Origin: an uncultured Spirochaetia bacterium
GTDB lineage: Bacteria > Spirochaetota > Spirochaetia > JABEVK01
DNA length: 64,000 nt
Assembly: GCA_937960645.1 (NCBI GenBank)
Contig: CALGPJ010000012.1
Span: 2,702 to 66,701, forward strand
Direction of reading: 5' to 3'
The position numbers were made by a program, and so were the translations under genes. This document shows positions 23,643-52,779 of this stretch, piece after piece (within the stretch, counting starts at the first letter, position 1; every line of letters starts with the position of its first letter). The notes under the pieces were generated by a model. That model was not told where the DNA came from. It saw only the letters and a list, made by a program, of their open reading frames with translations, and made no database searches.

Positions 23643-24192
23643 AAAACTTCTGGAACTGGCTACCGACGCCCAGGTCCGCTTGAAAGGTGGTTGGCCGATT
23701 TTCGATCTGGCGCCCGTCAACATCGCCGTTAAAGAAGACTCACCGCAGGACCCGGGACTTCCTGCCCTGCTCAAAGATTACGGTAAGGAATACCTGGGAA
23801 CGAGCAGCCCGCGATTGGTCATCTGCTGTACTCCCGTCCCGAGGGGGGAGGAGCTCGAATATCTAAAAAAATGGTTGGGGGCCATTCAACTGGATTTGGA
23901 ACGGGATTGCTTTTTGGTCGGCGGTCCCGATTCCGCCGATGAACTGGGCGACCTCCGCACCCTGATCGATCACCTCAAACCCAAGAGCCTGCTGGTCCTG
24001 GGGTCCGGGGCCAGCTCGGTGATCGTGGGCAGCAGGGTGCGAATCGAGGCCCTCCGGGACCAGGTTCGCGAGTTCGGAAAGATACCCATGGTCATCACCT
24101 ACGACCCGGCATCCGTGCTTGCCGACCCCAATCTTAAACGCCCGGTCTGGAAGGACCTCCAGCGAGTCGAGGGACTGATCCGATATGGATGA
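23620..24192 (+). CDS. uracil-DNA-glycosylase-fold protein (family-4-like, catalytic motifs degenerate)
   Basis: The C-terminal ITYDPASVLADPNLKRPVWKDL matches the HPS..LLR.P..K..AW.DL motif B, but with Asp in place of His. The GEAPG motif A position reads CCTPV. Confidence 0.5.
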   Translation: MPTTSLIKKLLELATDAQVRLKGGWPIFDLAPVNIAVKEDSPQDPGLPALLKDYGKEYLGTSSPRLVICCTPVPRGEELEYLKKWLGAIQLDLERDCFLVGGPDSADELGDLRTLIDHLKPKSLLVLGSGASSVIVGSRVRIEALRDQVREFGKIPMVITYDPASVLADPNLKRPVWKDLQRVEGLIRYG

Positions 24193-33869: not shown

Positions 33870-34691
33870 ATGAACAGCGACTACACTCAGCAAATCAAAA
33901 GAGCCGCCGAATGGTTGAGTCAGAAAACCGAGCACCGGCCCAAACTGGGGATCGTTCTGGGATCGGGCCTTTCGGAGGTTGCCGATGGCTTTCGTGGAGT
34001 AGACATTCCTTACCGTGACATACCCGGTTTTCCCGTCTCCACGGTGAGCGGGCACAAGGGGATGATGCGCATCACCCCCGAGGTGATGATCATGATCGGC
34101 CGGGTCCATTACTACGAAGGTTGGGCGTTGACCGATGTGGTCCTGCCGCTCTTCGTCATGCACGCCTTCGGGGTCAAAAAGCTGATCATCACCAATGCCG
34201 CGGGCGCGGTGACCCCGCAGCTCAAGCCAGCCAGCCTGGTCCTCATTCGGGATCATATCAATCTGATGGGTACCAACCCCTTCATCGGTGCCAACGACCC
34301 AGAGCTGGGACCGCGGTTTTTCGACATGACCCGAGTCTGGGACCACGAAATGCGGATTCAGGCCCAGGAGGTCGCCCGCGCCCAGTTGTCGAAGCGCTAC
34401 CCCCTGCCGGAGGGAGTTTACGCCGCTCTGCCGGGCCCCAACTACGAGACTCCCGCCGAAATCCGAATGCTCCAGGTCCTGGGGGCCGATCTGGTAGGGA
34501 TGAGCACCGTCCCCGAGGCCCTCGCGGCAGCCTACCTGAACATGAAAGCCCTGGGAATCAGCTGTGTCACCAATTTAGGGGCCGGTTTATCGCAGGGGCC
34601 GCTCAATCACGAGGAAGTCGTCGAAGTCGGAAAAATCGTGGAACGGGATATGCAGACCCTGATCCAGGGACTTGTTGCCCGTCTGCAATGA
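33870..34691 (+). CDS. punA: purine nucleoside phosphorylase (trimeric PNP/PunA type)
   Basis: GIVLGSGL, GHKGMM, HYYEGW, ITNAAG, GMSTVPE. Start at ATG 33870 (Met30 of the ORF-track ORF). Confidence 0.85.
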   Translation: MNSDYTQQIKRAAEWLSQKTEHRPKLGIVLGSGLSEVADGFRGVDIPYRDIPGFPVSTVSGHKGMMRITPEVMIMIGRVHYYEGWALTDVVLPLFVMHAFGVKKLIITNAAGAVTPQLKPASLVLIRDHINLMGTNPFIGANDPELGPRFFDMTRVWDHEMRIQAQEVARAQLSKRYPLPEGVYAALPGPNYETPAEIRMLQVLGADLVGMSTVPEALAAAYLNMKALGISCVTNLGAGLSQGPLNHEEVVEVGKIVERDMQTLIQGLVARLQ

Positions 34692-37983: not shown

Positions 37984-39549
37984 GTGTCCAACCTCGATCT
38001 TTCTACAGATTTGAAGGACAGGCTCAGCCAACTGAGCCTTCTCTTCGATATCAGCCAGGTCATCAGCAGTCCTCTTCCCTTCGAAGAAATCATCGAAAGC
38101 ATCTTCAAAAAGCTGCAAAGCGGTATCCAGATCAATCGGGGCATCCTCACCCTCCTCAATCGGAACACTTCCGAAATCATCATCGATACGGGTTTTAACC
38201 TCACCCCCGAGGAAAAAAGCCGGGGGCGCTACCGCCTGGGGGAGGGCATCACCGGCGAGGTGATTCAGACCGGCCGGCCAATTGTGGTCCCGCGGATCGG
38301 CGAGGAGCCTCGCTTCCTGAACAAGACCAACGCCCGCCGAAGGCCTGAGGACCTCGAGTTGAGCTTCATTTGCATTCCGATCCGCCAGGGTTCCGAGACG
38401 ATCGGTGCTCTGGGCGTCGATAAGCTTTACACGGACACCCAATTGATCGATGTGGACATTCAGGTTCTGACAGTCATCGCCTCGATGATCGCCCAAAATG
38501 TGAGCCTTCGCCAGCAATTTCAGGAAGAAAAGGAGTTCCTGCTCCGCGAAAATATCCGCCTGAATCAGGCCCTCACCGAAAAGTTCCGCTTTGATAACAT
38601 CATTGGAACCAACCATGCCATCCGCCAGGTGTTCGAGCTCATTGCCCAGGTAAGCACCAGTAATGCCACGGTCCTTATTCGCGGTGAGAGCGGAACGGGA
38701 AAGGAAATCATTGCCTCGGTCATTCATTACAACAGCCTGAGGCACGAAGGTCCGTTCATTCGGGTGAACTGCGCCGCCTTGCCTGAAAGCCTCATCGAAA
38801 GCGAACTTTTTGGGCACGAAAAAGGAGCATTTACCGGTGCCGTCTCCGAGCGCAAAGGACGGTTCGAGCTGGCCCACGGCGGTACCCTGTTTTTGGACGA
38901 GATCGGTGATCTCAGCCCACTGATCCAGGTCAAACTCCTGCGTGCCTTGCAGGAGAGGGAGATCGAGAGGGTGGGCAGCGGCAAACCCATTTCCATCGAT
39001 ACCCGAGTCATCGCGGCAACCAACCGAAACCTCGAGGAGCTGATGAGTCAAGGCAAGTTCCGCGAGGACCTGTTTTACCGTCTCAACGTCTTCCCCATCC
39101 ATGTTCCGCCGCTTCGGGAACGCAAAAGCGATATTCCACTCCTCGTGGATCATTTTATCGAAAAGTACAACCAGCGTCATGGGAAAAATGTCAAAAGAAT
39201 CGCCTCGACCGCCATCAATCTTTTGATGGCCTACCACTGGCCGGGAAACATCCGGGAGTTGGAGAACACGATCGAAAGAGCCGTTCTTCTGGCCAGCGAC
39301 GGGGTGATCATGGCCCATCACCTTCCGCCAACCCTCCAAACTGCCCAGAGCTCCAAGACCGAAATCTTTCAGAACCTCGAGCAGAGGCTCGATCAAATCG
39401 AAAAAGACATGATTTTGGATGCCCTCAAAGCGACCAACGGCAATTACTCCAAGGCTGCGAAGCTTTTGGGGCTCACCGAGCGAAAGATGGGACTCCGAAT
39501 CCAGAAGTTTGGCCTTACCAAAGAAGTTCTAAAAGGTACGTTTTTGTAG
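37984..39549 (+). CDS. sigma-54-dependent transcriptional activator with N-terminal GAF domain (NifA/NtrC-family EBP, no receiver)
   Basis: GAF region, then an AAA+ core with [23 protein letters not shown] and DEIGDL. C-terminal Fis-type [28 protein letters not shown]. Confidence 0.9.
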
Positions 39550-39623
39550 TGTTTTTTACGTTTATGTATTATTAACCCAGCGACAAGGGTTGCAATCACC
39601 CCCGTTCGAATGTTCGACTCCTT

Positions 39624-39719
39624 CGTTTCGTATCGGTAAATAAGCTTCGAATCACGATCACGAGGATTTTTCGTGCTGTCGTCTACCGAAGGGGGGCCCC
39701 AGGTTTCCGTTTCGTATCG
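39624..39719 (+). repeat. two perfect 12-bp direct repeats CGTTTCGTATCG, 84 bp apart (candidate enhancer sites)
   Basis: Copies lie at 39624-39635 and 39708-39719. The second is embedded in the dyad TTCG-TAT-CGAA. The surrounding 39605-39651 is rich in TTCG(A) cores. Confidence 0.5.
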
Positions 39720-39984
39720 AAGATTTACGTAGTGCCTCAGCAATTGTCCCCCAGAATTAACGACTTTGGCCCAAAAAATTAGTAAAAATGTTCGCAAAAG
39801 CCACAATCCTCGAACACATTCCCCAAATAATGGAAACAAATATCGGCCGCAAAAACCCGCATTTTCCCACTTAGGCGAAAACCACAAGCTACATGGGCCC
39901 ATTTTGGGGCTAACGGACAAAACTTGAGCACAATCAACGCGGCACTGGGGAAGATTTAATACGAAAACGCAATCTTTTTATCTC

Positions 39985-40000
39985 TGGCACGCTTCTTGCT
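39985..40000 (+). promoter_or_regulatory. sigma-54 (-24/-12) promoter of amtB-glnK
   Basis: cTGGCACgcttcTTGCTt is an exact TGGCAC-N5-TTGCW. It lies 32 nt upstream of the amtB ATG, with AAGGAGG in between. Confidence 0.8.
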
Positions 40001-40031
40001 TTTACTCTGAGTTTGCTTAAGGAGGTAAAGC

Positions 40032-41405
40032 ATGAGCAAAATCAAACTCGGTTTGTTCCTGGCGCTTCTGGTGTTCGGTAGCGCGAGTGTGTGGTCTCAG
40101 GAGGAACCCGCTGAGCCGCCGACTGTGGAGAGCGTACAATCCGGATTGGAGGCCGTCCAGAGCAGTCTGACCATGATCTGGTTGGTCCTGGCGGGGGCCC
40201 TGGTATTTTTCATGCAGGCCGGTTTTGCCGCTGTGGAAGTGGGATTGACCCGCGCCAAAAACTCGGCCAACATCATCATGAAGAACCTGATGGACTTCTC
40301 GGCGGGTTCCGTTGCATTCTTTTTCGTGGGATGGGGGCTCATGTACGGGGCAACGGCCTCCGGTCTGGTGGGTACGTCGAACTTCGCCTTGATGGGATAC
40401 GAGGCCGGGGAGGTCGCCAACATCCTTCGGGACTGGTTCTTCCAGGTAGTGTTTGCCGCCACGGCAGCCACGATCGTTTCGGGAGCGATGGCGGAGCGCA
40501 CCAAGTTTGTGTCCTACCTTCTCTACTCCATCTTTATCAGCGCCGTCGTCTATCCCATCAGCGGCCACTGGATATGGGGAGGAGGCTGGTTGAGTGAACT
40601 CGGTTTCCACGACTTTGCCGGTTCGACGGTGGTGCATAGTGTCGGCGGTTGGGCAGCCCTGGCTGGTGCCATCCTGCTCGGTCCGCGAATTGGGAAATAC
40701 GTCAAACTTTCCGATGGCAAAGTCAAGGTAAAAGCCATCCTTGGCCACAATCTTCCCCTGGCTGCCCTGGGTGTGTTCATCCTCTGGTTCGGATGGTACG
40801 GGTTCAACGCCGGCTCCACCCTGGACGGCAACAGTGGGGACATCGGCTGGGTGGCTGTTACCACCACGTTGGGAGCCTCTACGGGTGCTGTCGGGGCCAT
40901 GCTGACTTCCTGGTTCCTGTTCAAAAAGCCGGACACCTCGATGTCGCTCAACGGCGCCCTGGCCGGTCTGGTAGCCATCACCGCTCCCACCTATGTCGTT
41001 GAACCGTGGGCGGCCATCGTGATCGGTCTAATCGGTGGAATCCTGGTGGTTCTCAGCGTCGAATTCTTCGACAAGGTCCTGCACATCGACGACCCCGTGG
41101 GTGCCATCTCCGTCCACGGTGTTTGCGGTGTTTGGGGGACCCTCGCCGTGGGACTTTTCGCCAATCGGCCCGATGATGAAATTGTCGGTTTGTTTTATAA
41201 CGGCAGTTTTTACCAACTGGGAGTCCAGGCCCTCGGCGTCCTTGCGGTGTTCGCCTGGGTTGCGATCACCATGGGTCTCTTCTTCCTCCTCCTCAAGTTC
41301 ACGATCGGGCTCAGGGTTTCCGAAAAGGAAGAATTACAGGGCCTGGACATCACCGAACACGCCGCCGAAGCCTACCCTGGCTTCCAGATCTTCAGCAATA
41401 TGTAA
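40032..41405 (+). CDS. amtB: ammonium transporter
   Basis: Signal peptide followed by 11 TM helices. Amt signatures: AGFAAVEVGL, DFAGSTVVHSVGG, FGWYGFNAGS, DDPVGAISVHGVCG. Confidence 0.95.
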   Translation: MSKIKLGLFLALLVFGSASVWSQEEPAEPPTVESVQSGLEAVQSSLTMIWLVLAGALVFFMQAGFAAVEVGLTRAKNSANIIMKNLMDFSAGSVAFFFVGWGLMYGATASGLVGTSNFALMGYEAGEVANILRDWFFQVVFAATAATIVSGAMAERTKFVSYLLYSIFISAVVYPISGHWIWGGGWLSELGFHDFAGSTVVHSVGGWAALAGAILLGPRIGKYVKLSDGKVKVKAILGHNLPLAALGVFILWFGWYGFNAGSTLDGNSGDIGWVAVTTTLGASTGAVGAMLTSWFLFKKPDTSMSLNGALAGLVAITAPTYVVEPWAAIVIGLIGGILVVLSVEFFDKVLHIDDPVGAISVHGVCGVWGTLAVGLFANRPDDEIVGLFYNGSFYQLGVQALGVLAVFAWVAITMGLFFLLLKFTIGLRVSEKEELQGLDITEHAAEAYPGFQIFSNM

Positions 41406-41417
41406 GGAGGAAAGACC

Positions 41418-41759
41418 ATGAAACTGATCATCGCCTACATTCAGCCGCACAAACTGAACGATGTAAAGCAAGAACTTTACGCGAACGAAATTTACAAGAT
41501 GAGTGTGACCAACTCGCTGGGATGTGGCCAGCAAGCGGGGTACACGGAGCACTACCGCGGAGTGGACATCGAGGTCAACCTCCTGAAGAAGGTACGTCTC
41601 GAGATCGCCGTGAACGATAACTTCGTGACTAAAACGGTGGATGCCATCATTAAGGGTGCCCGAACCGGGGAAATTGGTGACGGAAAAATCTTCATCCTCC
41701 CCCTGGAAGACTGTATCCGCATTCGAACAGGGGATAAAGGAAGCTCGGCCATCGGCTGA
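41418..41759 (+). CDS. glnK: P-II nitrogen regulatory protein (GlnK-type, amtB-linked)
   Basis: [17 protein letters not shown] ... [24 protein letters not shown]-loop position 51 is Ile rather than Tyr. Confidence 0.9.
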
Positions 41760-41780
41760 TTTGCCGCCTCGACAACGAAA

Positions 41781-41807
41781 CCACCCCCAGCACGGGGGTG
41801 GTTTTTT
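41781..41807 (+). terminator. intrinsic terminator after glnK
   Basis: CCACCCCC-agcac-GGGGGTGG followed by TTTTTT. Confidence 0.8.
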
Positions 41808-41977
41808 ATTTTCTGACGTTTCTGCCGATAAAATTTAAAAAACAACGAAGTTTCTCCTTCGGAGACTTGAATAAATATTAATATTTGATATTTTGGATTA
41901 TGTTAGATAAGTTTTATTATTGATTTTTTAGATATTAGGATCGATAATTATACTATTGAAACTGCCAAGGAGGAGCG

Positions 41978-42856
41978 ATGAAAAACTTTTTCGCCTGGAG
42001 CTTCTTTCTGTTGATTGCGGGGAACTGGGCCTATGGGGAGGTGATCTACCTGCGCAGCGGCGAGATCGTGATTGGTAACATCGTCGGGGCCGGGCTGGGC
42101 ACCATCTCGGTTCGCTCTTTCGGTAAGGAACGCAACATTCCCTCCAAAGACATCCTGAAAACCATCGCCTCCTTGCGGGAAATTGGTGAAGACACCGTCC
42201 TGGTGGTTCTCAAGGATGGAACCAACATCGTCGGGAAACCGGTGGATGTGGACGACGAGCTGGGATTGTTCGTGGACATTGGGTTCGGCAACCTCGCTCT
42301 TCCCACCCGGGCCATCTCTTCGATATACGACCCGGAAAGACGGGCCGTGGCCCAGGGGACTTCCGTCAATTTCTCGGGTAACTTCAAATACATCCTCCCC
42401 CTGAGTAGCAGTTTTTCGCCCGGTATTGGGGGTTCCGTCAGCACCGAGGTTCGGCTGGGGCAGATCCGAGAATTATTCCTCAATCCGGTGGTGTCTTTTT
42501 ATCACATGGACTACAAGGTCAACGATAAAATCGATTTTTACAACGTTGCCGTCGATTTGAATATTCTTTACAAACTTCTGGTTTTTGGGGAAATTCTTCC
42601 CGCGGTAGAGTTCCTGGTGCCCTATTTCGGATTGGGCGCTGGCGCCACCTTGGTCAATCTTTTCGATGCCCGCGACGAGGCGCCCCTTCCCCAATATGGT
42701 CTGTTGACAGGTTCCTTCAATGCCCAGGCCGGTTTCGAGTGGCGATTCCCGCTCAACATCGCCTTGAAAACGGGGGCAATTTTCGAAGGCATCCTCCAAT
42801 CGGGCGGGCTGTTCTGGAACGTCTATTTGGTGGCCGGGTTGGGCTATGGTTTTTAG
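41978..42856 (+). CDS. outer-membrane beta-barrel protein with N-terminal soluble beta domains
   Basis: AAGGAGG before the ATG. Signal peptide MKNFFAWSFFLLIAGNWAYG. The C-terminal half has an alternating beta pattern and ends in VAGLGYGF. Confidence 0.6.
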   Translation: MKNFFAWSFFLLIAGNWAYGEVIYLRSGEIVIGNIVGAGLGTISVRSFGKERNIPSKDILKTIASLREIGEDTVLVVLKDGTNIVGKPVDVDDELGLFVDIGFGNLALPTRAISSIYDPERRAVAQGTSVNFSGNFKYILPLSSSFSPGIGGSVSTEVRLGQIRELFLNPVVSFYHMDYKVNDKIDFYNVAVDLNILYKLLVFGEILPAVEFLVPYFGLGAGATLVNLFDARDEAPLPQYGLLTGSFNAQAGFEWRFPLNIALKTGAIFEGILQSGGLFWNVYLVAGLGYGF

Positions 42857-43991
42857 AAATCGATGGGCTGCCCTTGGCCTCATCGGCCTGGTCCTGGTTG
42901 CGTGTCAAAACAATCTCCTCTTCCAGCCCGTTGCGCCAACAGATGTTGAAGAAACCCTGAAGGCGGTGAAGCTTCGGGGAATATGGGTCATCGGTGGTCA
43001 GAATACCCCGTACAACCTGGGGTACCCCACCGCGGCCGGCGTCATCGCTCAGGTGGACCTCTACGATCCCGAGACGAACACCTGGTACCCCGACATCACC
43101 CGCCTGCCACTGCCGGTCACGTTTGCCGGTGCCGCCAGCTACGGGGGTAAGATCTACGTTTCCGGGGGCTGGGATTCCCGCGGCGTCGTTCGCAATGAGC
43201 TACAAATCTTTGACGTGATTCAAAATCGCTGGAGCTTCGGTGCGATCATGCCGGAGCCCAGGGCCTACCACGACCTCATCCTTCTGGACGAATATTTTTA
43301 CGCCTCCGCCGGCGTCAACACGAACCACGATGCCACATTCAATCCTCGATATCAGTACTTCCGCTACGATCCTTCCCGAAACAGCTGGGCACCCCGGCTG
43401 GCTTTTGGGAATATCAACAGCACCATAACCCTTGCAGGGGGCATCATCCGCGCCATGGGCGGACGTAGTACCAGCACTGCCATCCAGAACTATCACGATG
43501 GTTACATCGCCACGCCAACTTCATCCACGGACGCCACGACAACCGGTACGACAGAAATTTCCATTGCCCGGATGTTCGGAGGGGCCGTATCGCTCCTCGG
43601 TTCCGACCTGGCTGGGTACATCCTCTATTTCGGAGGCATCAATGCCAACCTGGGAGGAACCTGGCGAGCCTTCGTGTTTCACGACCTGACATCCAACAAC
43701 AGCATTCTGACGAACACCATCTTTTACCTGAAGGCTCCTTACGAGGCCCCCTCCAACTGGACCGCTGCCCCGGCCAGCCTCAACCAGGCCCTGGCCTTTC
43801 ACCGTGCCATCACCTACAAGAGCGGCGTGTACGTTATGGGCGGTTCGAAAAACCTTCCCGGCCCCATCGCCACCGAGGAAAATTGGTTTTTCAACCTCAG
43901 CAACTTCCCTGCGGCCCTTCCCCCCCCTGTGGCTAAATCTCCCATGCCGGTGGCCCGATACGGCCACCAACTCGTGAGGGTAGTCGAATGA
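42846..43991 (+). CDS. Kelch-type beta-propeller lipoprotein, paralog 1
   Basis: Lipobox LVLVAC followed by QNNLLF. Kelch-like blades: GKIYVSGGWDS, LQIFDVIQNRWS, YDPSRNSW. C-terminal PMPVARYGH. Confidence 0.75.
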   Translation: MVFRNRWAALGLIGLVLVACQNNLLFQPVAPTDVEETLKAVKLRGIWVIGGQNTPYNLGYPTAAGVIAQVDLYDPETNTWYPDITRLPLPVTFAGAASYGGKIYVSGGWDSRGVVRNELQIFDVIQNRWSFGAIMPEPRAYHDLILLDEYFYASAGVNTNHDATFNPRYQYFRYDPSRNSWAPRLAFGNINSTITLAGGIIRAMGGRSTSTAIQNYHDGYIATPTSSTDATTTGTTEISIARMFGGAVSLLGSDLAGYILYFGGINANLGGTWRAFVFHDLTSNNSILTNTIFYLKAPYEAPSNWTAAPASLNQALAFHRAITYKSGVYVMGGSKNLPGPIATEENWFFNLSNFPAALPPPVAKSPMPVARYGHQLVRVVE

Positions 43992-45133
43992 AAAGGCACC
44001 TGTCCATTTTTCTGGTTCTCCTGGCCTCCTGTCAGGGCAATCTGCTCTTCGAACCGTACCCAAAGGACGCCCCCGGGGACCCGCGCCCCCTCGCGGCGCT
44101 GAAGCGGGGTTTTTGGGTAGTGGGCGGCCAAAGCTCCCACTACACGGGCACCTCCTTTCCCTTCGTTGCGAACCTGCCCGCCCAGATTGACGTGTTCGAC
44201 CCCGAAACAGAGACCTGGTACCCCAACGTCACCCAGCTTCCCACACCCGTCAGCTTTGCGGGGGTGGCCGGATACAAGGGGAAGCTCTATGTGGTCGGCG
44301 GCTGGGACAGCCAGGGGGCCGTTCAGCAAAAACTCCAAATTTATGATTTGATGAGCGACACCTGGACGCAAGGGGCCGTGTTGCCGGCTTTGAGGGCTGG
44401 CCTGGAATTGGTGGGCATCGAGGGCGATTATCTTTATGCCACCAACGGGTATAATACCAACATCGACGGGGCCTACGCCAATCAAAATCTCTGGTATATG
44501 TATCAAATCAATAGCAACACCTGGCTGCCGAGGATCAACCACGGGGCGGTGGACCAGGCCGTTCTTTCGTTTCGCGGCATCATTCACACCGTAGGAGGCA
44601 GAACGGCCGTAGCGACCCTCGTCAATGCCCACGACGGCTACCTGACCTGGCCGACCTCTTCCACCGACACAGCCACCACCACAACGGCAGAAATCCCCGC
44701 TCCTTCCGTTCGCGCCGGGTCCAGCCTCACCATTCTTTCTTACACCAATGGCATGCCCCTGCTGATTCTGTCCGGGGGCATGTCTGCGAATCCGACGGGA
44801 ACGCCCCTGGCCTACATCTTCCGCAATATAACAGGGGGAACGCTGACCAACCAGCTCCATTTTTTGCCCCCGCCCTACGAGGCGGGAAGCTGGACCCTCC
44901 TAACCCCTACCTTGCCCGCTACCCTGATGTACCACCAAAGCCTGGCTTACAAAACCCGGCTGTATGTGTTTGGGGGGGCATCGGCAGTGTTATCGCCCTC
45001 GGGTCTCGACACCGTCTACCGTTTCGATTTGAGCAACCTGACCAGTGTGCCCGCCCCTGCGACCCTTGTCCCCATGCCGGTGGGCCGTTTTGGACACCGG
45101 GTGGTTCGAATTTCGGAATTTCTGGAGGATTGA
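43988..45133 (+). CDS. Kelch-type beta-propeller lipoprotein, paralog 2
   Basis: Lipobox LLASC followed by QGNLLF. Motifs: AQIDVFDPETETWYP, GKLYVVGGWDS, LQIYDLMSDTW. C-terminal PMPVGRFGH. The start overlaps the paralog 1 stop (ATGA). Confidence 0.75.
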   Translation: MKRHLSIFLVLLASCQGNLLFEPYPKDAPGDPRPLAALKRGFWVVGGQSSHYTGTSFPFVANLPAQIDVFDPETETWYPNVTQLPTPVSFAGVAGYKGKLYVVGGWDSQGAVQQKLQIYDLMSDTWTQGAVLPALRAGLELVGIEGDYLYATNGYNTNIDGAYANQNLWYMYQINSNTWLPRINHGAVDQAVLSFRGIIHTVGGRTAVATLVNAHDGYLTWPTSSTDTATTTTAEIPAPSVRAGSSLTILSYTNGMPLLILSGGMSANPTGTPLAYIFRNITGGTLTNQLHFLPPPYEAGSWTLLTPTLPATLMYHQSLAYKTRLYVFGGASAVLSPSGLDTVYRFDLSNLTSVPAPATLVPMPVGRFGHRVVRISEFLED

Positions 45134-45134
45134 C

Positions 45135-46268
45135 ATGAAACGATGGAGTTCTCTCGTGTTGCTACTGGCGCTGTTGGGATGTAACGGAAACCTGCTCTAT
45201 GTCCCCTTCGAGGAGCCCGAGCCCCTGGCGGTCACACCCCCAACCTGGGAGGAGCTAGTGAACCGGGGGATCTGGATAGTGGGCGGGCAGCAGGCCAACT
45301 ACACCAGTCCGAACCTGGTAGCTCAGATCGACCTCTTCGATCCGATAACCGAAACCTGGTATCCAAGCGTGACCACCCTGCCGACGCCCGTCACCTTTGC
45401 CGGTGTGGCCGCCCACAAAGGAAAGATCTACGTGGCCGGGGGCTTCAACGCAACCGGAGCCAACACCAATGCCCTGCAAATCTTCGACACCGTAACCCAG
45501 ATCTGGACCACCGGCGCCAACCTGCCTGCCGTGCGCGCGAATTTCGATCTGGTGCCCTCGGCCGGCTACCTTTACGGGACAGCGGGTACCACAGCGGCAA
45601 ATTACAACACGGCCTTCGCTAATGCCACTAACTGGGTTTTTTACAATACATCCACCAATGCCTGGACGGGCCCTACCGCCTTCACGACCTTCTACGAATC
45701 CGGAATGGCCCTCCTTGTCTACGGCCTGATCCATCAATTCGGCGGCCGCAGCTCCAACACAAATATTGCCAGCACCCATTTTGGCTTCATCCCCAATGCC
45801 GCCACCGCAGTGGAGACCACCGCTACCGCCGAGTATCCCATCAGCCGTGTTGGCTCCGCCGTTGGTTTTTACGCGAATTCTCTGGGTACAGGTTACATCC
45901 TGGTGGCAGGGGGAATCAACGCCAACCTGACCGGCACCCCCACGGCCTACATCTTCAATGGTAACACGGCCAACCAAACCATTTTGACCAACCTGATCTG
46001 GTACCTCCGTGCGCCGTTCGAGGCGCCGGCCGCCTGGGTGGCCGCGGGCGCCTCCCTTCCCTTCCCAGTGGCCATGATCCAGGGAGCCGTTGCGAACAAC
46101 AAGTTCTACATGTTTGGCGGCACAAAGTCCCTGCCTACCCCCAACGCCACCGACGAGTCCTGGGTGCTCGATCTCAAAGGCTTTCCCAACGCGCCCACGA
46201 GTATCCAGGCCCTGCCGCCGATGCCCGTTGCGCGATTCGGTCACAAGGCCGTCATGATGGTTCAATAA
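45135..46268 (+). CDS. Kelch-type beta-propeller lipoprotein, paralog 3
   Basis: Start at ATG 45135, with GGAGGA upstream. Lipobox ALLGC followed by NGNLLY. Motifs: AQIDLFDPITETWYP, GKIYVAGGFN, LQIFDTVTQIW. C-terminal PMPVARFGH. Confidence 0.75.
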   Translation: MKRWSSLVLLLALLGCNGNLLYVPFEEPEPLAVTPPTWEELVNRGIWIVGGQQANYTSPNLVAQIDLFDPITETWYPSVTTLPTPVTFAGVAAHKGKIYVAGGFNATGANTNALQIFDTVTQIWTTGANLPAVRANFDLVPSAGYLYGTAGTTAANYNTAFANATNWVFYNTSTNAWTGPTAFTTFYESGMALLVYGLIHQFGGRSSNTNIASTHFGFIPNAATAVETTATAEYPISRVGSAVGFYANSLGTGYILVAGGINANLTGTPTAYIFNGNTANQTILTNLIWYLRAPFEAPAAWVAAGASLPFPVAMIQGAVANNKFYMFGGTKSLPTPNATDESWVLDLKGFPNAPTSIQALPPMPVARFGHKAVMMVQ

Positions 46269-46295
46269 ACGGAGTACTCAAAAGGAGTTTGCACG

Positions 46296-48368
46296 ATGAA
46301 AAGAATGATGTTGGTTTTGGCCTCACTGATCCTTCTTCCAGCCCTCGGAGCCCAGGAGCTGAGCGCCACGATTACACAAGCACGAAGCCTGGTCCAGGAT
46401 AAAAATGATTATCCCGCCGCCGAGGGACTTTTGAACGGTGTCTCTTCCCAGGACGCCCGATCCGTATCCGACGCATTCACGGAAATCGGCGTTCTGGAAT
46501 ACAACCGGCGCAATTTCCGAAACGCTTACAGCGCCTTCCGGGCCGCCATTCGACTCCAGAGTACCAATCAGACGGCGACGCAATACTATCTACGCATGCG
46601 CCGAGAGATGGATGTTAACAATCTGAAAAACGAATATGTCCCGCCGGCGCCTCAGGTTACCCAGACCCAACCCAGCACCGAAACCACGTCCTCCTCTTCC
46701 CGGTCCCCAGAAACCCGCCAACCTCCAACCGACAGTATCAGCTCCGAAGAGCGTCAAGCCGAAGCCGCTCGCCAAGTTGAAGCCGCTCGCCAAGCAGAGG
46801 CTGCTCGTCAAGCTGAAATCGCACGTCAGATCGAGGCCGCTCGTCAGGCGGCCGAGATCGAAAAACGCAACGCGGAACTCCAGGCCATGATGGCCCAACT
46901 CAAGGCAGCCGAAGACCGGCTTAACGCCGCTCAGACCAGTGTTACCTCTTCCCAGCGAGAAAACGAAATGTTGCGCCGTCAGGTGGAGGCCCAGCGGCAA
47001 CAGGTCGATGCCCAGCGGCAGATGGTGGAGCGCCTGATTGCGCAGCAAGCCTCTCGGACGCAAACGGCACCTGCCGCCACCGCCAACAACGCCCAGCTTG
47101 CCGAGGCCATCCGAGCCCTGTCCGAGGCGGCCCAACGCCCGGTCAAGGTGGAGACCGATCCGACGATTCTGCAACTTTTGAATGAGATTAAAAATGAACG
47201 TCCCAGCACCGCATCGAGCTTCGATCCTTTTGCCCCCCCTCTGCTGTACTTCACCATCCTCATCGGCGTCGTGGTCCTGGTACTTTTGGTTTTCCTGGGA
47301 TTATTCGTTGCCGCCCTCCTCCGTGCCCGTCAATCGCGTGGCTCCCAGGAGTACAAGGGGTCGTATGGCATCATCCCGGTGGGCTTGGAGAATAACCCGG
47401 CCAGCGTGTTCCTGCCCGCATCGGCCAACCGCGGTCTGATCGAGGGCGATCAATCGGGGGGCAATCCCGCTGACAGCATTGAAATTCAACGATTGATGTT
47501 ACGCGCCGACCATCTGCAGAAGATGTACGACGACGCGAGAAGCGGCAAACTGAGCTGGGACACCATCCGGCGTTACGTGGATGACCTTGACAAGGCCCTG
47601 CGCCACGACATCCTCAAGGTGGTCGAGACACGGCTCAACAGCGGCATCCTTTTTTCTACCGACGCGGCGCTCTCGGTTCTCTTTCCCTTCCTGAGCGATT
47701 TTGATGCCTACATCAGCGCCAAGGCCGAAGAATTGGGTGCGGCCGCTCTCAAGAACGGCCGAGGTCCCCGAAGTTCCCGCCAGGAGCAGGGGCCGTTCAG
47801 CCTGGAAGCCCTGACGCAAATCCCCAGAAAACTTGCCGAGGTGACCAAAAAAATGGATCGAAGCCTCATCACCGCCCAGCTGGCCTACGGCCTGGCTTTG
47901 AAAATTGGTCTTTCCAACGAAGAAAGCGAGATGATTTACAGAGGCGCTCTCGCCCACGACGCCGGCTATTTGGTTCTCGATCCCAGCAAATTGCAACGGA
48001 TCATCTCCAAAGCGGAAATCACCGACGAGGAGTGGAAGTTCCTGCAATCGCACGTCGAGAAGGGGATGGAATACTTCAACGGAGCCACGGTTCCACCCGT
48101 TATCCGCGATTCCATTCTTTACCACCATGAACGGAACGACGGAAGCGGCTACCCCCGGGGACTCAAGAAAGAGGAAATACCGCTTTGTGCCAAAGTCATC
48201 GGGATTTCCGAAACCTTCGCCACCCTGATCAGTCCCCGCTCGTACCGAGAAAAACACGAAATTAACAGCGCCATGGCCATCATCCGAGACGGGGCCCGCC
48301 GCAAGTTCGATCCCGATTTGGTCAGCGCGCTCGAGGAAATCGTCCGGGTGAATGGGAGCGACCTATGA
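46296..48368 (+). CDS. bitopic HD-GYP phosphodiesterase with periplasmic TPR-like head and long coiled coil
   Basis: Signal peptide, a TPR-like region, an S/T/P-rich linker and a Q/R/A/E-rich coiled coil. TM helix YFTILIGVVVLVLLVFLGLFVAALL. Cytoplasmic HD-GYP motifs: ALAHDAGY, HVEKG, YHHERNDGSGYPRGL. Confidence 0.85.
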   Translation: MKRMMLVLASLILLPALGAQELSATITQARSLVQDKNDYPAAEGLLNGVSSQDARSVSDAFTEIGVLEYNRRNFRNAYSAFRAAIRLQSTNQTATQYYLRMRREMDVNNLKNEYVPPAPQVTQTQPSTETTSSSSRSPETRQPPTDSISSEERQAEAARQVEAARQAEAARQAEIARQIEAARQAAEIEKRNAELQAMMAQLKAAEDRLNAAQTSVTSSQRENEMLRRQVEAQRQQVDAQRQMVERLIAQQASRTQTAPAATANNAQLAEAIRALSEAAQRPVKVETDPTILQLLNEIKNERPSTASSFDPFAPPLLYFTILIGVVVLVLLVFLGLFVAALLRARQSRGSQEYKGSYGIIPVGLENNPASVFLPASANRGLIEGDQSGGNPADSIEIQRLMLRADHLQKMYDDARSGKLSWDTIRRYVDDLDKALRHDILKVVETRLNSGILFSTDAALSVLFPFLSDFDAYISAKAEELGAAALKNGRGPRSSRQEQGPFSLEALTQIPRKLAEVTKKMDRSLITAQLAYGLALKIGLSNEESEMIYRGALAHDAGYLVLDPSKLQRIISKAEITDEEWKFLQSHVEKGMEYFNGATVPPVIRDSILYHHERNDGSGYPRGLKKEEIPLCAKVIGISETFATLISPRSYREKHEINSAMAIIRDGARRKFDPDLVSALEEIVRVNGSDL
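46758..46847 (+). repeat. five in-frame 18-bp tandem repeats encoding (A/V/I)E(A/I)ARQ
   Basis: AEAARQ VEAARQ AEAARQ AEIARQ IEAARQ. The first two units share 15 identical consecutive nucleotides (gaagccgctcgccaa). Confidence 0.9.
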
Positions 48369-49108
48369 ACAGTCCGGCCATCTACGGAATACTCAACAAT
48401 CTGGAAAAGGACGAATTCCGGATGATTTTGGAGGAATTAGCCCACCACCTGGCCCTGCACGAGGGGGTCCATCCCCTGATTGTGGATCCCTACCAGACCC
48501 TGCCAACTGGAGAGTGGGCCCCCCATGCGACAGGTTCGTTGAAAAAGCACGTCAAAAAAACTCTGGGGGGGAGGATTCCCCTTCTCGGGCAGGAACAAAT
48601 CCTGGCGCTGAGCAAGTCAAAATCGCGGGAGCCCTGGGAAATGTTCCAGCAGGCGGTGAGTTTTTTCGTGTTGAAGCCCGATCAACTCAACAGCCTCCCC
48701 GAAGCCCCCTTTCCCGTGATCTTTATCGTGAAACCTGAAAGCGACAGCACATCCTTCCTTTTCGAGTGCTTCAACTCCATCAAAAAGCGATGGGCGACTT
48801 TGCCCCCCTGCCCCACCGTGATCTGGAACAAGGATCACATCGAGAAGGCGGCGGAAACCTTTGTGGAAATTGTCTCGGAGCTGACGAAGGTCACAAAGGT
48901 CAGGCCGCCCTTCGAGTTTCTGGGAAACCTGGCCGTATCCCTGGAAAAGGTTCAGGTCATCCGAAACCGCCCGGGTCTGTCCCTGATCGAAACCTTTCCT
49001 GAGGACCAGTTTCACGGCCAGATCCGCCGGCTGTTTCGAGGATTGTCCCGAACCCCGGCCGTTTTTTCAACAAAAATCGTGGAATCTTTGAAGGAAACGT
49101 CCGCTTAG
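48365..49108 (+). CDS. hypothetical protein, possibly a P-loop-less ParA/MinD-fold protein
   Basis: The ATG overlaps the HD-GYP stop (ATGA). The N-terminus AIYGILNNLEKDEF...LAHHLALHEGVHPLIVDP aligns loosely to the MinD strand-P-loop-helix-strand unit but lacks GKGGxGKT. Confidence 0.5.
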   Translation: MNSPAIYGILNNLEKDEFRMILEELAHHLALHEGVHPLIVDPYQTLPTGEWAPHATGSLKKHVKKTLGGRIPLLGQEQILALSKSKSREPWEMFQQAVSFFVLKPDQLNSLPEAPFPVIFIVKPESDSTSFLFECFNSIKKRWATLPPCPTVIWNKDHIEKAAETFVEIVSELTKVTKVRPPFEFLGNLAVSLEKVQVIRNRPGLSLIETFPEDQFHGQIRRLFRGLSRTPAVFSTKIVESLKETSA

Positions 49109-49120
49109 GGATTTCACGAC

Positions 49121-49468
49121 CTAAAAAGGGGACTCTTTCATGTCGGAAAGGTAGGAAACAGTCGATTCTAGGACGCGCCGAGCCTCCTCCCAATTTTTCT
49201 TAGCCAGGTCCCTGTGACCCAGCCGCGCTTGATCTTCGGCCGCCTGAAGGAGTGTCACAGCCGGGGTTGCGGCAAGATTACGACAGGCGCCCTTGATCTT
49301 ATGGATGCTGTCCTCGATCTCGAATGTATCGTTGCGATCAAAAGATCTGAGAATGTCCTGGTACATCTCCTCGTAGGATTCCAGGAAAAGTCGAACCAAA
49401 CTGAGGTAGAGTTTTCCATCCCCGGCGCAGATCTCGCGAGCCCGGGCGGCGTCGATCCATTCCGTCAT
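49121..49468 (-). CDS. Hpt (histidine phosphotransfer) domain protein
   Basis: Four-helix-bundle-sized protein (115 aa) with the IEDSIHKIKGACRNLAA phosphohistidine motif. Confidence 0.7.
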   Translation of the reverse strand: MTEWIDAARAREICAGDGKLYLSLVRLFLESYEEMYQDILRSFDRNDTFEIEDSIHKIKGACRNLAATPAVTLLQAAEDQARLGHRDLAKKNWEEARRVLESTVSYLSDMKESPF

Positions 49469-49532: not shown

Positions 49533-51080
49533 ATGCTTCAACCAGACCTTCTGAAGTCCCTTCACCCTTTGGAAATCAAAGTGTTGCTCTCCGGGCTGGA
49601 GGTTCTCGACGCCCCCCTCATCGTGGAAAAGCTCGATTACAAGCTCGGTCACGCGCTGCAGTCCCTGAGCTGGCTCAGCATGAAAAACCTTGTCCAGGAA
49701 ACCGATCGCAAGACCCTGCGTTTTTACGAGCTTACCGATCTGGGGCGGGTTTGGCTGGCGGAAGGCTTCCCCGAAGCTAAACTGTTGCGGGCCGTGGCTT
49801 CGGGAAAACGGCTACCCCTCAGTGCCTGGACTGGGGAGCTGAATCTCGAACAAAGTGAGCTCGGCAGTGCCTTCGGGAGGCTGAGCAAGGAAGGTTTTTT
49901 GGGCCTGGATTCCGAGAAGAACGTCATTCCCCTCCAAACCGAAGAGCCCGCCTGGTTTGCAATTGTCCGCCACCTCCTCGACAGGGCCAGTAAACAGGAC
50001 CTGCTCGCGGAAACCGATCTCGGTCCCGAGGAGCTTTCGCTGATGCAGGCCATGGCACGAAAACGCGGCGCTTCGGGGGCAGCGTTCAAGGTGGTGGAGC
50101 GCGACGAGGTTCGGTACCAGCTGACCGACCTGGGCCGTGAAGTGCGCGAGCAGCTGCGTTCCAGCGGCCTGAGCGGTGAGGAGGCCGGGGCGCTCACACC
50201 CGAGATGCTCCGCAGCGGTGAATGGAAAAAACTCACCTTTCGGGCGTACAACATTCGGGTACCACCTACCCGGGTGCTCATGGGCCGGAAGAACCCCTAC
50301 ACCGAATTTCTGCGTCAGGTCAAGGACAAGCTGGTCAGCCTGGGCTTCGAGGAATTCGACGGTCCCCTGGTGGAAACCGAGTTTTGGAACGGGGACGCCC
50401 TCTTCATGCCGCAGTTTCACTCCGCCCGGGACATCCACGATGTTTACTACATCCGCGAACCCACCCATGCCCGTCACATCGAGGAACCCTGGTTGAGCCA
50501 GGTAGCCGCCGCCCACGAAAACGGGGGCGGTACCGGAAGCCGCGGCTGGGGATACCGCTTCGACCACGACTTTACCCGTCGGCTCATCCTGCGCAGCCAG
50601 GGAACCGTGCTGAGTGCCAAGCAGCTGCCCAGGGCCAGGGTGCCGGGTAAGTACTTCGGGGTGGTCCGCTGTTTTCGTTACGATCAGGTGGATGCCACCC
50701 ATGGCGCGGACTTCTACCAAACCGAAGGAATCGTGTTGGGAGAGGAAGTGAACCTTCGGACCCTGCTGGGCCTGCTCGAAATGTTCGCCGTGGAGGTGGC
50801 CGGCGCCACCGACGTCAAGTACGTGCCCGGATACTTCCCCTTCACCGAGCCGAGCATCGAGGTGCACATCAGGCACCCGGTCCTGGGATGGTTTGAACTG
50901 GGCGGATCGGGCATCTTCCGCCCCGAGGTGACACGCCCCCTGGGTGTGGAGGTGCCGGTCCTGGCCTGGGGACTGGGGATCGACCGTATGGCCCTGATGC
51001 AGCTGGGACTCAACGACCTGCGCGAGCTTTTCACGCCCGACATCGAAAAAGTGCGCCTGCGCCGGGCCCAAGGAGCCTGA
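49533..51080 (+). CDS. pheS: phenylalanine--tRNA ligase alpha subunit, archaeal/eukaryal type
   Basis: 515 aa with a long N-terminal extension. Class II core: FMPQFHSARD, FRYDQVDATH, GGSGIFRPEV. Confidence 0.9.
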   Translation: MLQPDLLKSLHPLEIKVLLSGLEVLDAPLIVEKLDYKLGHALQSLSWLSMKNLVQETDRKTLRFYELTDLGRVWLAEGFPEAKLLRAVASGKRLPLSAWTGELNLEQSELGSAFGRLSKEGFLGLDSEKNVIPLQTEEPAWFAIVRHLLDRASKQDLLAETDLGPEELSLMQAMARKRGASGAAFKVVERDEVRYQLTDLGREVREQLRSSGLSGEEAGALTPEMLRSGEWKKLTFRAYNIRVPPTRVLMGRKNPYTEFLRQVKDKLVSLGFEEFDGPLVETEFWNGDALFMPQFHSARDIHDVYYIREPTHARHIEEPWLSQVAAAHENGGGTGSRGWGYRFDHDFTRRLILRSQGTVLSAKQLPRARVPGKYFGVVRCFRYDQVDATHGADFYQTEGIVLGEEVNLRTLLGLLEMFAVEVAGATDVKYVPGYFPFTEPSIEVHIRHPVLGWFELGGSGIFRPEVTRPLGVEVPVLAWGLGIDRMALMQLGLNDLRELFTPDIEKVRLRRAQGA

Positions 51081-51081
51081 A

Positions 51082-52779
51082 ATGCCAAAAATCGAAGTCA
51101 ACTACAAAGTGCTGGAACGGTTAGCCGGCCAAACCTGGAAGAACATCGAGGAGCTGGAAAGAGACCTGGTCAACCTCAAGGGGGAACTGGACGGAAGGGA
51201 AGGCGACGAGCTGAAACTGGAATTCAACGACACCAACCGGCCCGACCTCTGGTCGACGGCCGGTGCTGCCCGAGCCCTGAGGTGTTATCGGACCGCCGAT
51301 CCCCCGTCCTACGATTTTTTTTCCCGCGCAGATAAGCCGCTTGAAGCCGAACAACGCGTGATCCGGGTGGACCCCGCCCTAAAGGACATCCGCCCTCACA
51401 TCGCGGCCTTCGTGGCCAGGGGGCCGGCCCTCGACGATGCCGGTCTGAGGGACCTGATTCAAACCCAGGAGAAACTCTGCTGGAATTACGGGCGCAAGCG
51501 CCGCAGTATCGCCATGGGAGTGTACCGCTCACAGCAACTCCATTGGCCCCTCACCTACACGGCCAGGGATCCCCACTCGACCCGATTCGTCCCCCTGGGG
51601 ATGGAGGAGGAACTGAGCCTGGTGGACATCCTCGAGAAGCACCCGAAAGGGAAGGAGTACGGCCACATCGTCAAGGGGTTCTCCCTCTATCCCTTTTTGC
51701 AGGATGCCGATGGCAAGGTGCTGAGCTTTCCGCCCATCATCAACGCAGCGCACCTGGGTGCCGTCGAGGTTGGGGATAGTGAGGTACTGGTGGAACTTAC
51801 CGGCACCGAGCTGCCCTCGCTGAGCCTCGCTGCCGCCATCGTGGCCTGCGATCTGGCCGACCAGGGCTTTATCATCCTGCCCGTCAGGATCGAGTACCCC
51901 GAACCCACACCCTGGGGATCCACCCTGGTTTACCCCTACTACTTCCAACCCTCAGCCCGTGCAAAAACGAGCGCCTGCACCCGGCTCCTCGGTCTGGAAC
52001 TCTCTCCCGATGACATCACGACGGCGCTGAAGCGGATGGGGCTGGAAGCGCGATTCGCGGGGGACTCTTTTGAAGTGGCCCCGCCGCCGTACCGAAACGA
52101 TTTTTTGCACGAGGTGGACCTGATCGAGGACGTGATGATCGGCCATGGCCTGACCCGGTTCACGCCCACCCAACCCCGCGAGAGCACCATTGGGCGGTTG
52201 ACGCCCATGGAAGAGCTCGTGCGCCAGGTCCGCGATTTGATGGTGGGCCTGGGATTTCAGGAGATGATTTACAACTACCTCGGCTCGGGCCGGGACTTCA
52301 TCGAGAAAATGGGCATCGACGGCAGCCATCTGGTACGCATCCTCAACCCCATGACCGAAAACTACGAATACGTGCGCAACTCGATCGCCCCCAACCTCCT
52401 GGAATCCGAGTCGGTGAGCGGCGGGGCCATCTACCCCCACCGCATCTTCGAGATCGGCAAGGTGGCGGTGCGGGACGACTCGGACGTGAGCGGCACGGTC
52501 ACCCTGGACCAGCTGGGTTTCCTGATTGCCGATCGAAGCGCCGATTTCAACCAGATCAACGCGGTGGTCTACGCCCTGGCCTACTACCTCCACGTGGACT
52601 GGAACGTTCAGGAATCCAGCGATCCCCGGTTTCTACCGGGACGAGCCGCCCGCCTGGTGAAGAACGACCAAACCCTGGCCGTCTTCGGGGAGATTCACCC
52701 CCAGGTGTTGGAAAATTGGGACATCGGTGTCCCCTGCGCATACGCAGAATGGAACCTGGGAGCACTCATCGATGGCTAA
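51082..52779 (+). CDS. pheT: phenylalanine--tRNA ligase beta subunit, archaeal/eukaryal type
   Basis: 565 aa against roughly 800 aa in bacterial-type PheT. B3/4- and B5-like layout, directly after pheS. Confidence 0.9.
   Translation: MPKIEVNYKVLERLAGQTWKNIEELERDLVNLKGELDGREGDELKLEFNDTNRPDLWSTAGAARALRCYRTADPPSYDFFSRADKPLEAEQRVIRVDPALKDIRPHIAAFVARGPALDDAGLRDLIQTQEKLCWNYGRKRRSIAMGVYRSQQLHWPLTYTARDPHSTRFVPLGMEEELSLVDILEKHPKGKEYGHIVKGFSLYPFLQDADGKVLSFPPIINAAHLGAVEVGDSEVLVELTGTELPSLSLAAAIVACDLADQGFIILPVRIEYPEPTPWGSTLVYPYYFQPSARAKTSACTRLLGLELSPDDITTALKRMGLEARFAGDSFEVAPPPYRNDFLHEVDLIEDVMIGHGLTRFTPTQPRESTIGRLTPMEELVRQVRDLMVGLGFQEMIYNYLGSGRDFIEKMGIDGSHLVRILNPMTENYEYVRNSIAPNLLESESVSGGAIYPHRIFEIGKVAVRDDSDVSGTVTLDQLGFLIADRSADFNQINAVVYALAYYLHVDWNVQESSDPRFLPGRAARLVKNDQTLAVFGEIHPQVLENWDIGVPCAYAEWNLGALIDG

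Follow-up and report, generated by a model that had tools for sequence, protein, structure and literature searches.

HD-GYP proteins with extracytoplasmic sensors are common, and none of them has been characterized experimentally (Galperin and Chou, bioRxiv 10.1101/2021.11.05.467447). The sensors described in that survey are of the PBPb, dCache, CHASE2 and MASE types and do not include a tetratricopeptide repeat (TPR) head on a stalk. Proteins with PBPb, dCache or CHASE2 sensors exhibit a one-component layout, in which the extracytoplasmic sensor is followed by a transmembrane segment and a C-terminal HD-GYP domain containing the HD, HHExxDGxGYP and RxY[K/R] motifs. A gene cluster at positions 41978–49108 of the 64,000-nucleotide stretch of DNA analyzed here (the window) encodes an HD-GYP protein of the same layout (G5), but G5 differs from the described proteins in its two-TPR head on a long stalk, an extra cytoplasmic domain and a substituted metal site. 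Moreover, G5 is always accompanied by partners: an exported protein (G1), Kelch lipoproteins (G2–G4) and a MinD-fold protein (G6), the last of which is replaced by a MinD-like ATPase at one distant locus (L084). We assign about even confidence to the reading that these genes constitute a conserved operon-like module linking the outer envelope to cytoplasmic cyclic di-GMP (c-di-GMP) signaling.

The cluster contains six open reading frames (ORFs), all on the forward strand. G1 (41978–42856) encodes a secreted protein of 292 residues. The three following genes, G2 (42846–43991), G3 (43988–45133) and G4 (45135–46268), encode Kelch lipoproteins of 381, 381 and 377 residues (K1, K2 and K3) with lipobox cysteines at Cys20, Cys15 and Cys16, respectively. 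The start codon of G4 is an ATG within a longer GTG ORF. G5 (46296–48368; 690 residues) combines a TPR head, a stalk, a transmembrane segment and an HD-GYP domain, and G6 (48365–49108; 247 residues) has a modeled MinD/FlhG fold. An initial annotation of this DNA, made from the sequence alone, had counted seven genes, one more than is present. Its Kelch protein lengths and lipobox cysteines are correct, and its junctions of −11, −4, +1, +27 and −4 nucleotides match the G1–G6 coordinates. The translational coupling that it described between G5 and G6 corresponds to an ATGA sequence, in which the G5 stop codon overlaps the G6 start codon.

The gene order recurs in 10 further lineages as G1, one to three Kelch genes, a gene for a protein with a signal peptide, TPR head, stalk, transmembrane segment and HD-GYP domain, and G6. 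Relatives' contigs are labeled L001–L006 and L084–L095, and the module is located at L001–L003, L004, L005, L006, L084, L090, L091, L092, L093, L094 and L095; 11 loci were counted for the 10 lineages, and L004 is a near-identical strain of the window. The proteins of L001–L003 are 55–72% identical to those of the window, and those of L004 are 97–100% identical. Because these closest relatives (L001–L004) share the whole neighborhood, from amtB-glnB through pheST, they are uninformative on coupling and, taken alone, prove nothing against the view that the genes are neighbors by recent common ancestry and have no shared function. The distant loci render that view barely credible. At L006 and L084–L095, which include at least seven of the 10 lineages, the cassette is found between unrelated flanks at protein identities of 21–51%, and the overlapping or near-abutting reading frames are conserved, with a G5–G6 overlap of 4 or 1 nucleotides at 9 of 12 loci.

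L006, a Treponemataceae metagenome-assembled genome (MAG), contains the same six genes, with a FecR-like gene on the upstream side and, on the downstream side, genes for a HATPase_c_3 protein and a class I tRNA synthetase. At L005, the module is present without the Hpt gene that lies downstream of G6 in the window. The neighborhoods of six distant members of the G6 family, which fall into different clusters at 50% identity (L090–L095), were looked up, and each of the six is encoded by the last gene of an array consisting of a 287–300-residue G1 homologue, one or two Kelch proteins, a 650–704-residue HD_5 protein and the G6 homologue; the flanks differ in all six cases. This array is also present at L084, with a true MinD-like ATPase (GGKGGTGKT) in the last slot. 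A G1 homologue at 26–28% identity adjoins a downstream Kelch gene, and the same pairing is observed at L085/L086 and L087. A single Kelch copy is the common state among the module loci, and the core module consists of four parts (G1, Kelch, G5 and G6). Since distant relatives retain the order between unrelated flanks, the six genes form one conserved unit, as found by the gene-neighborhood comparison that the initial annotation had proposed. The lack of co-conservation in relatives that would have refuted the annotation is thus not observed, and its claim of an uncharacterized envelope cluster is better supported than the sequence alone could show; its relay mechanism is a hypothesis. The order is far beyond chance, and chance synteny of mere neighbors is rejected by the recurrence.

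Among the matches listed in the genome scan, two are true relatives and the remainder are generic Kelch matches. The metagenome scan, which used a narrower alignment, returned only two close loci. Organism labels are attached to few carriers, which gives a rough taxon range for the module: Treponemataceae (L006 and P0074), a cave MAG labeled Treponema denticola (L005) and one Clostridia-labeled MAG. The Treponemataceae-labeled relatives suggest that the organism of the window is spirochaete-like, and the affinities of G1 to Leptospira families and the type of PheS encoded in the window add limited hints to the taxon. Additional genes adjoin or modify the module at three distant loci. In the low-GC relative L084 (2683–6254), an HD-GYP protein with QN in place of HD is followed by the MinD-like ATPase and then by a second HD-domain protein, in which HDIGK is present and GYP is degenerate; this arrangement looks like a different division of labor in the same module. 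At L090, a gene for a STAS-domain anti-sigma-factor antagonist (10762–11280) overlaps the end of the G6 homologue, which may point to partner switching as an output in this lineage. Genes for MksE/JetB, DUF3375 and SbcC-like proteins, which represent a Wadjet/Mks-type condensin or defense cluster, lie just upstream of the module at L095 (1–4081) and are probably unrelated to it.

G5 begins with a signal peptide and a periplasmic head of two TPR-like repeats (residues 1–110; 46296–46625). In the orthologue alignment, the head displays the conserved motif EIGxxEYNRRNFKNAYxxFRxAxKLxxTNQxATQYYLRMRREMDVxNLKNE. Matches to TPR_1/TPR_2 are weak in the window G5, near the cut-off in L091 and L092 and above it in L090. 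The head is connected to the membrane via a stalk (residues 111–320; 46626–47255) that consists of an S/T/P-rich linker and a 114-residue helical stretch free of proline and glycine. The helical stretch contains EAARQx hexapeptide repeats and a heptad-periodic segment (residues 186–258; z = 3.4 for 3.5-residue periodicity). Weak coiled-coil-type NCBIfam matches are also found for the stalk. Of the TPR-like head on a long coiled coil that had been described initially, the head and a Pro/Gly-free helical stalk stand, and heptad periodicity is confined to parts of the stalk. The EAARQx repeats are encoded by an 18-nucleotide tandem repeat (46755–46817; residues ∼154–174) that is present in five copies in the window and in seven copies in L004; given this difference between strains, the stalk length is polymorphic.

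A single transmembrane segment (residues 321–339; 47256–47312) follows the stalk and coincides with the top hydropathy window of G5 (mean Kyte–Doolittle value of 3.3). The signal peptide, TPR head, stalk and transmembrane segment are kept in all 12 G5 orthologues. On the cytoplasmic side, a helical domain of ∼95 residues (residues 392–486; 47469–47753) with the pattern LLKADxLxKMY...LPVLFPFLTDxDxY is conserved in eight of nine aligned orthologues and absent from L084. It has no match in Pfam and represents a new cytoplasmic domain.

The HD-GYP domain occupies G5 residues 522–675 (47859–48320; Pfam HD_5, E = 2.3e-25). Its residues were assigned by alignment to 4mcw, 5z7c and 4r8z and tabulated over 12 orthologues, with residue roles, including guanine binding by RxY[K/R], taken from Galperin and Chou (bioRxiv 10.1101/2021.11.05.467447). 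The HD dyad (PmGH His221-Asp222) corresponds to His554-Asp555 and is kept in 11 of the 12 orthologues, with QN as the replacement in L084. His586 is also kept in G5. The HHERNDGSGYP sequence is located at residues 610–620, and the HHERxDGxGYP pattern is invariant in all 12 orthologues apart from D/N. The RxY[K/R] motif is formed by R648-S-Y650-R651 (RSYR) and varies to RAHR in L093 and to KPYR in L084. The initial annotation of an intact HD-GYP domain holds for these three motifs and fails at three other positions. The first metal-binding histidine (PmGH His189) is replaced by Arg522; 10 of 12 orthologues have Arg, Gln or Val at this position, and the histidine is kept by L084 and L090 alone. 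The lysine of HDxGK is replaced by Tyr558 and is Tyr or Phe in every orthologue. The last aspartate ligand (PmGH Asp305) is replaced by Glu639, and Glu is found in 10 of 12. The His-to-Arg/Gln/Val and Asp-to-Glu changes co-occur in the same 10 orthologues. L090 retains the full canonical ligand set; L084 likewise retains canonical ligands, although its HD dyad is replaced by QN. Strong conservation in the remainder of the domain makes the metal site look remodeled, not decayed. Glu639 might still coordinate metal, and the substitutions thus fall short of proof of inactivity.

LapD, the membrane component of the LapD–LapG–LapA system, is an inner-membrane protein that combines a degenerate cytoplasmic GGDEF-EAL region with a periplasmic LapD_MoxY_N domain, through which it binds a partner in the periplasm. 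By analogy, its inside-out layout resembles that of G5 and would fit the remodeled metal site. Since 10 of 12 orthologues carry an altered site, the domain may serve a receptor role or inside-out signaling just as well as a phosphodiesterase output. In an inside-out scheme, the HD-GYP domain would act mainly as a c-di-GMP receptor, and binding would shift the stalk and head, which would then capture or release the Kelch proteins or G1 and change, for example, adhesion, outer-membrane tethering or surface display. This scheme is favored by the three substitutions and the QN replacement in L084, together with the invariant HHERxDGxGYP pattern and the largely kept guanine-binding motif, and non-catalytic HD-GYP functions have been noted by Galperin and Chou (bioRxiv 10.1101/2021.11.05.467447). 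However, L090 has full canonical ligands, glutamate is still able to bind metal, and the module contains neither a LapG/LapA-type protease nor a giant adhesin. We consider the inside-out scheme a serious alternative but, on balance, rather unlikely.

G6 has no family in Pfam or NCBIfam, and neither G6 nor its family has a ParA/MinD match in them; a sequence-profile search of the PDB with G6 returned nothing significant. When 1.84 billion representatives were searched exhaustively with HMMER, only 26 G6-family proteins were found, all of 244–273 residues. The AlphaFold model of G6 obtained from the resulting 27-sequence alignment has a pLDDT value of 91.7 and a pTM value of 0.89; this alignment was needed, as the model from two sequences was unusable (pLDDT 34). 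In a Foldseek search, the top matches of the model are FlhG (4rz2) and FleN (5jvf, 8p53 and 7ejw), followed by NifH, HypB and ParA (TM-score of about 0.65, E of about 2e-8). Only three residues are located between strand 1 and helix 1, the site of the phosphate-binding loop in MinD, and the Walker A motif (KGGxGK[ST]) is absent from G6 and the 26 family representatives (27 of 27). The initial call of a P-loop-less ParA-like protein is therefore upheld by both fold and motif. An hhalign comparison of the 27-sequence G6 profile with the L084 MinD-like ATPase gave a probability of 77% over 118 columns, and a 5-sequence G6 alignment gave only 4%. The G6 family and the L084 ATPase also have a C-terminal ESFFxxI helix in common. 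By fold, hhalign match and shared helix, the G6 family is linked to the MinD-like ATPase and constitutes a new family of P-loop-less MinD-fold proteins. G6 evolves fastest among the six proteins, with 36% identity between the window and L001 compared with 55–72% for the other five; this divergence is consistent with a relaxed or shifting constraint after loss of the ATPase site.

FlhG, FleN and MinD share their fold with G6, and G6 resembles FleN of the FleQ–FleN pair in having a c-di-GMP-related partner. In contrast to these proteins, G6 lacks Walker A and any sequence-model match, and it is paired with a membrane-bound HD-GYP protein instead of FleQ or the flagellar C-ring. The FlhG/FleN resemblance leaves a positioning or structural role open. 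The module could act as a spatial landmark or structural tether at an envelope site, for example near subpolar flagellar motors, where G6 would place it and the HD-GYP domain would be merely a local c-di-GMP sink or scaffold. The best structural matches of G6 are flagellar-number regulators, its slot was ancestrally that of a MinD-like ATPase, and the shared ESFFxxI helix resembles the membrane-targeting helix of MinD; all three agree with such a role. ParA/MinD genes are also usually encoded beside the cargo on which they act (PMC10241942). Conversely, flagellar or division genes are adjacent at no locus, G6 without a P-loop would be unable to cycle as a positioning ATPase, and a peptidoglycan-binding domain was not detected in the module. 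On balance, a landmark or tether role appears unlikely.

A propeller, TPRs, a long periplasmic helix and an outer membrane-anchored protein are combined in the trans-envelope assemblies Tol-Pal/CpoB (YbgF) and BamB/BamD. The propeller, TPR, coiled coil and outer-membrane anchor predicted for the module recall Tol-Pal/CpoB, and this likeness, as an analogy, would also suit a tether. Unlike Tol-Pal/CpoB, the module lacks both a TolQR-type motor and a peptidoglycan-binding domain of the OmpA-like type, its propeller is of the Kelch type and putatively lipidated, and a cytoplasmic signaling domain is attached.

The Kelch-like blades assigned initially to G2–G4 are confirmed by scores above the Pfam gathering values in all three proteins (54.6–55.5 bits for Kelch_1 with a cut-off of 20.1, and 47–63 bits for Kelch_6 with a cut-off of 25.3), and each protein contains six GG-containing blades. 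The closest solved relatives of the Kelch proteins are six-bladed Kelch propellers that bind proteins. The lipoboxes are LVAC (G2), LASC (G3) and LLGC (G4). All six aligned proteins share the lipobox cysteine, which is found in 26 of the 27 Kelch proteins encoded at the 12 loci, and G2–G4 are predicted to be lipidated. All three contain the motifs C(Q/N)(N/G)NLL(F/Y), AQ(V/I)D(L/V)(Y/F)DPxTxTWYP, GK(I/L)YVxGG(W/F), LQI(F/Y)D and PMPV(A/G)R(Y/F)GH, as quoted in the initial annotation, which put the paralogue identity at 35–40%; the measured identity is 42–45%, with G3 being 42–43% identical to G2 and G4. Orthologues of K2 and K3 occupy the corresponding positions in L001, L005 and L006, and the Kelch proteins of single-copy lineages are equidistant from all three paralogues. 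This distribution points to an old, lineage-specific triplication of a usually single gene. The residues that follow the lipobox cysteine (encoded at 42903–42923, 44030–44050 and 45180–45200) conform to the motif C-x-G-(N/D/S)-(L/I)-L, which is kept in all lineages (Kelch genes of L001–L095), even at ∼30% identity elsewhere, and could be a sorting signal or docking peptide.

The sialic-acid mutarotase NanM/YjhT is likewise a Kelch propeller of six blades that is exported to the periplasm, and it exhibits weak profile similarity to G2–G4. The Kelch proteins might accordingly be periplasmic carbohydrate-active or carbohydrate-binding proteins, similar to NanM or galactose oxidase, whose substrate or product would be sensed by G5 in a nutrient or glycan sensor. 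The weak NanM/YjhT model matches, the mutarotase labels given to distant Kelch matches in some sources and the N-terminal Pur_ac_phosph_N/FN3-like domains of several orthologues, which are common in glycan-facing proteins, are in line with this function. However, the scores are far below the family cut-offs (21.9 bits against 256 for TIGR03547, and 27.2 against 45 for PF24996), and identity as a NanM/YjhT mutarotase, which the initial annotation had raised as a possible refutation of its model, is rejected. In contrast to NanM/YjhT, the module proteins are predicted to be lipidated and have conserved motifs of their own. No sialic-acid genes are found nearby, genes for sugar transport or catabolism are not conserved beside the module, and the closest solved relatives are protein-binding propellers, which makes a glycan sensor quite improbable.

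G1 is the first gene of every module found. The protein consists of a signal peptide, two small β domains (Lepto_7_Nterm-like, then LSM/SH3-like) and a C-terminal region of ∼165 residues, in which a heuristic identifies eight amphipathic segments of alternating hydrophobicity and a GLGYGF end. G1 scores 31.1 bits against NCBIfam Lepto_7_Nterm (NF047433; N-terminal domain of Leptospira LA_0442/LA_0875), for which the cut-off is 43. The 13 G1 homologues produce sub-threshold NCBIfam matches to LB_137_fam (11 of 13) and Lepto_7_Nterm (10 of 13), LA_3334_fam matches 6 of 13 at a best E of 2e-14, and LSM is weakly matched in 9 of 13. Judged by the NCBIfam matches across these homologues, G1 is related to uncharacterized Leptospira families but is not a member of them. 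OMP_b-brl does not match the window G1 and matches 2 of 13 homologues at an E of about 8e-4, below the cut-off. The G1 profile has no significant match in the PDB, where the eight-stranded barrel AlkL is found only at E = 0.96. The C-terminal region is predicted to be an amphipathic β region of eight strands and is likely an outer-membrane anchor. Of the outer-membrane barrel with extra N-terminal β domains that had been assigned initially, the β domains are retained through weak matches, and the barrel is a tentative prediction.

The module resembles, by analogy, systems in which an outer-membrane lipoprotein and a barrel report the envelope state to an inner-membrane protein, namely, Rcs (RcsF lipoprotein–outer-membrane protein–IgaA) and NlpE–Cpx. 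The components are not homologous, the module output is an HD-GYP domain, not a phosphorelay, and the inner-membrane partner in the module has its own predicted periplasm-crossing stalk. For the link from the outer envelope to c-di-GMP signaling, our best inference on localization, contacts, signal direction and output is as follows. After export, G1 would be inserted into the outer membrane through a small β-barrel at its C terminus, with its two N-terminal β domains facing the periplasm. The Kelch propellers, usually one and here three old paralogues, would be lipid-anchored in the periplasm. G5 would span the inner membrane once and project its two-TPR head on a helical stalk of ∼100–220 residues, which would be long enough to reach the outer-membrane side of the periplasm, where the head would touch the Kelch/G1 assembly. 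A change in this contact, triggered by a propeller ligand, by the condition of the outer membrane or the peptidoglycan, or by the spacing of the envelope, would pass via the stalk and transmembrane helix to the new helical domain in the cytoplasm and to the divergent HD-GYP domain, which would then alter c-di-GMP hydrolysis or binding. G6, a putative descendant of a MinD/FlhG-type ATPase without nucleotide binding, would act on G5 either as a fixed adaptor or by positioning it.

Several observations weigh against this link. The contact between the G5 head and the Kelch/G1 proteins is putative, and all carriers are metagenomic. The G1 barrel is built on sub-threshold matches and a heuristic, and heptad periodicity is significant in parts of the stalk only. 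The stalk length ranges from 101 to 222 residues among orthologues, and the 690-residue window G5 differs from the 702-residue protein of the 99%-identical strain L004 (11162–13270) by 12 stalk residues; a length that varies two-fold, and even between near-identical strains, argues against a strict ruler. Finally, the loss of the first histidine in 10 of 12 orthologues and of HD in L084 makes a c-di-GMP phosphodiesterase output of G5 doubtful.

A more far-reaching version of the envelope-to-c-di-GMP link, to which we give tentative and clearly lower confidence, is an undescribed trans-envelope machine. In this machine, an HD-GYP protein with a remodeled site would bridge the periplasm to an outer-membrane barrel and Kelch propellers, and a new P-loop-less family descended from MinD would couple it to its target. 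Envelope mechanics or spacing, or a ligand bound by the propeller, would be turned into c-di-GMP signaling, or the reverse. If true, the machine would represent a new class of envelope sensor with a new pseudo-ATPase family.

No record in Pfam, NCBIfam, PADLOC or Rfam describes the module, and no description was found in the literature on Kelch, HD-GYP, spirochaete, MinD and Leptospira loci, in agreement with the initial statement that no characterized system has this composition. A 2026 survey of Leptospira c-di-GMP genes does not mention Kelch, TPR or MinD partners. An anti-phage defense system is rejected because PADLOC matches none of the six proteins. The module belongs to no named system, since three conserved catalytic-site positions fail for HD-GYP, Walker A fails for ParA/MinD and the score fails for NanM. 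Membrane HD-GYP signaling is known, and the module, with its accessory envelope partners, contains at least one new protein family (G6) and one new domain (the cytoplasmic helical domain of G5). The module is a good candidate for a new envelope-to-c-di-GMP link and supplies an extracytoplasmic-sensor HD-GYP protein with candidate partners that are both defined and conserved. Furthermore, the G6 family exhibits what would be the conversion of a positioning ATPase into a fixed adaptor, and the module adds a new predicted domain on the cytoplasmic side and, with G1, a family that has uncharacterized Leptospira proteins as relatives. In spirochaetes, envelope sensing is poorly understood, much of the classical enterobacterial machinery is lacking, and the flagella are periplasmic. 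Should the module prove to be a trans-envelope sensor, hypotheses on how c-di-GMP controls motility or the envelope state in this phylum could be derived from it and tested.

The boundaries of the module are defined on both sides. Upstream, a terminator-like hairpin (41777–41805, forward strand) with a 12-bp stem and a following T run ends the amtB-glnB unit and represents the upstream boundary, outside the module. It is followed by an AT-rich leader of ∼170 nucleotides (41806–41977, forward strand; GC fraction of 0.45 compared with ∼0.57 in the surroundings), and both the terminator and the AT-rich spacer named in the initial annotation are thus present. The leader contains promoter-like hexamers at 41920–41954, identified by a promoter scan, and an AAGGAGG ribosome-binding site before G1. 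Rfam has no family match in the leader or elsewhere in the window, which indicates no riboswitch, c-di-GMP type included. Directly upstream of the hairpin, a nitrogen-regulation unit (37984–41759) encodes a GAF–sigma-54 activator of 521 residues, AmtB and GlnB (P-II); amtB and glnB were identified via Pfam matches of orthologues. The unit is syntenic in close relatives, with the terminator between it and the module. The sigma-54 activator, amtB and glnB are rejected as module members on account of the intervening terminator and their absence at other loci.

Downstream, the convergent hpt gene reported initially is found at 49121–49468 on the reverse strand, with 12 nucleotides between its stop codon and that of G6. 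It encodes a stand-alone Hpt phosphotransfer protein of 115 residues that is kept only in the closest relatives (L001–L004). The gene is not downstream of the module in L005, L006 or any distant locus, and its membership in the module is rejected. The Hpt gene is followed by pheS and pheT (49533–52779), and the 515-residue PheS is presumably the long archaeal/spirochaete-type α subunit, which gives a hint to the taxon. Four other notable genes in the window encode a cNMP-binding-domain protein (469–1602, reverse strand), an aromatic amino-acid lyase of the HAL/PAL type (9475–10971, reverse strand), PriA (24185–26125, forward strand) and a RadC-JAB domain fused to a DinG-like helicase (34121–37102, forward strand). 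The RadC-JAB/DinG-like gene has 993 residues as an ORF compared with 805 residues in the called orthologues.

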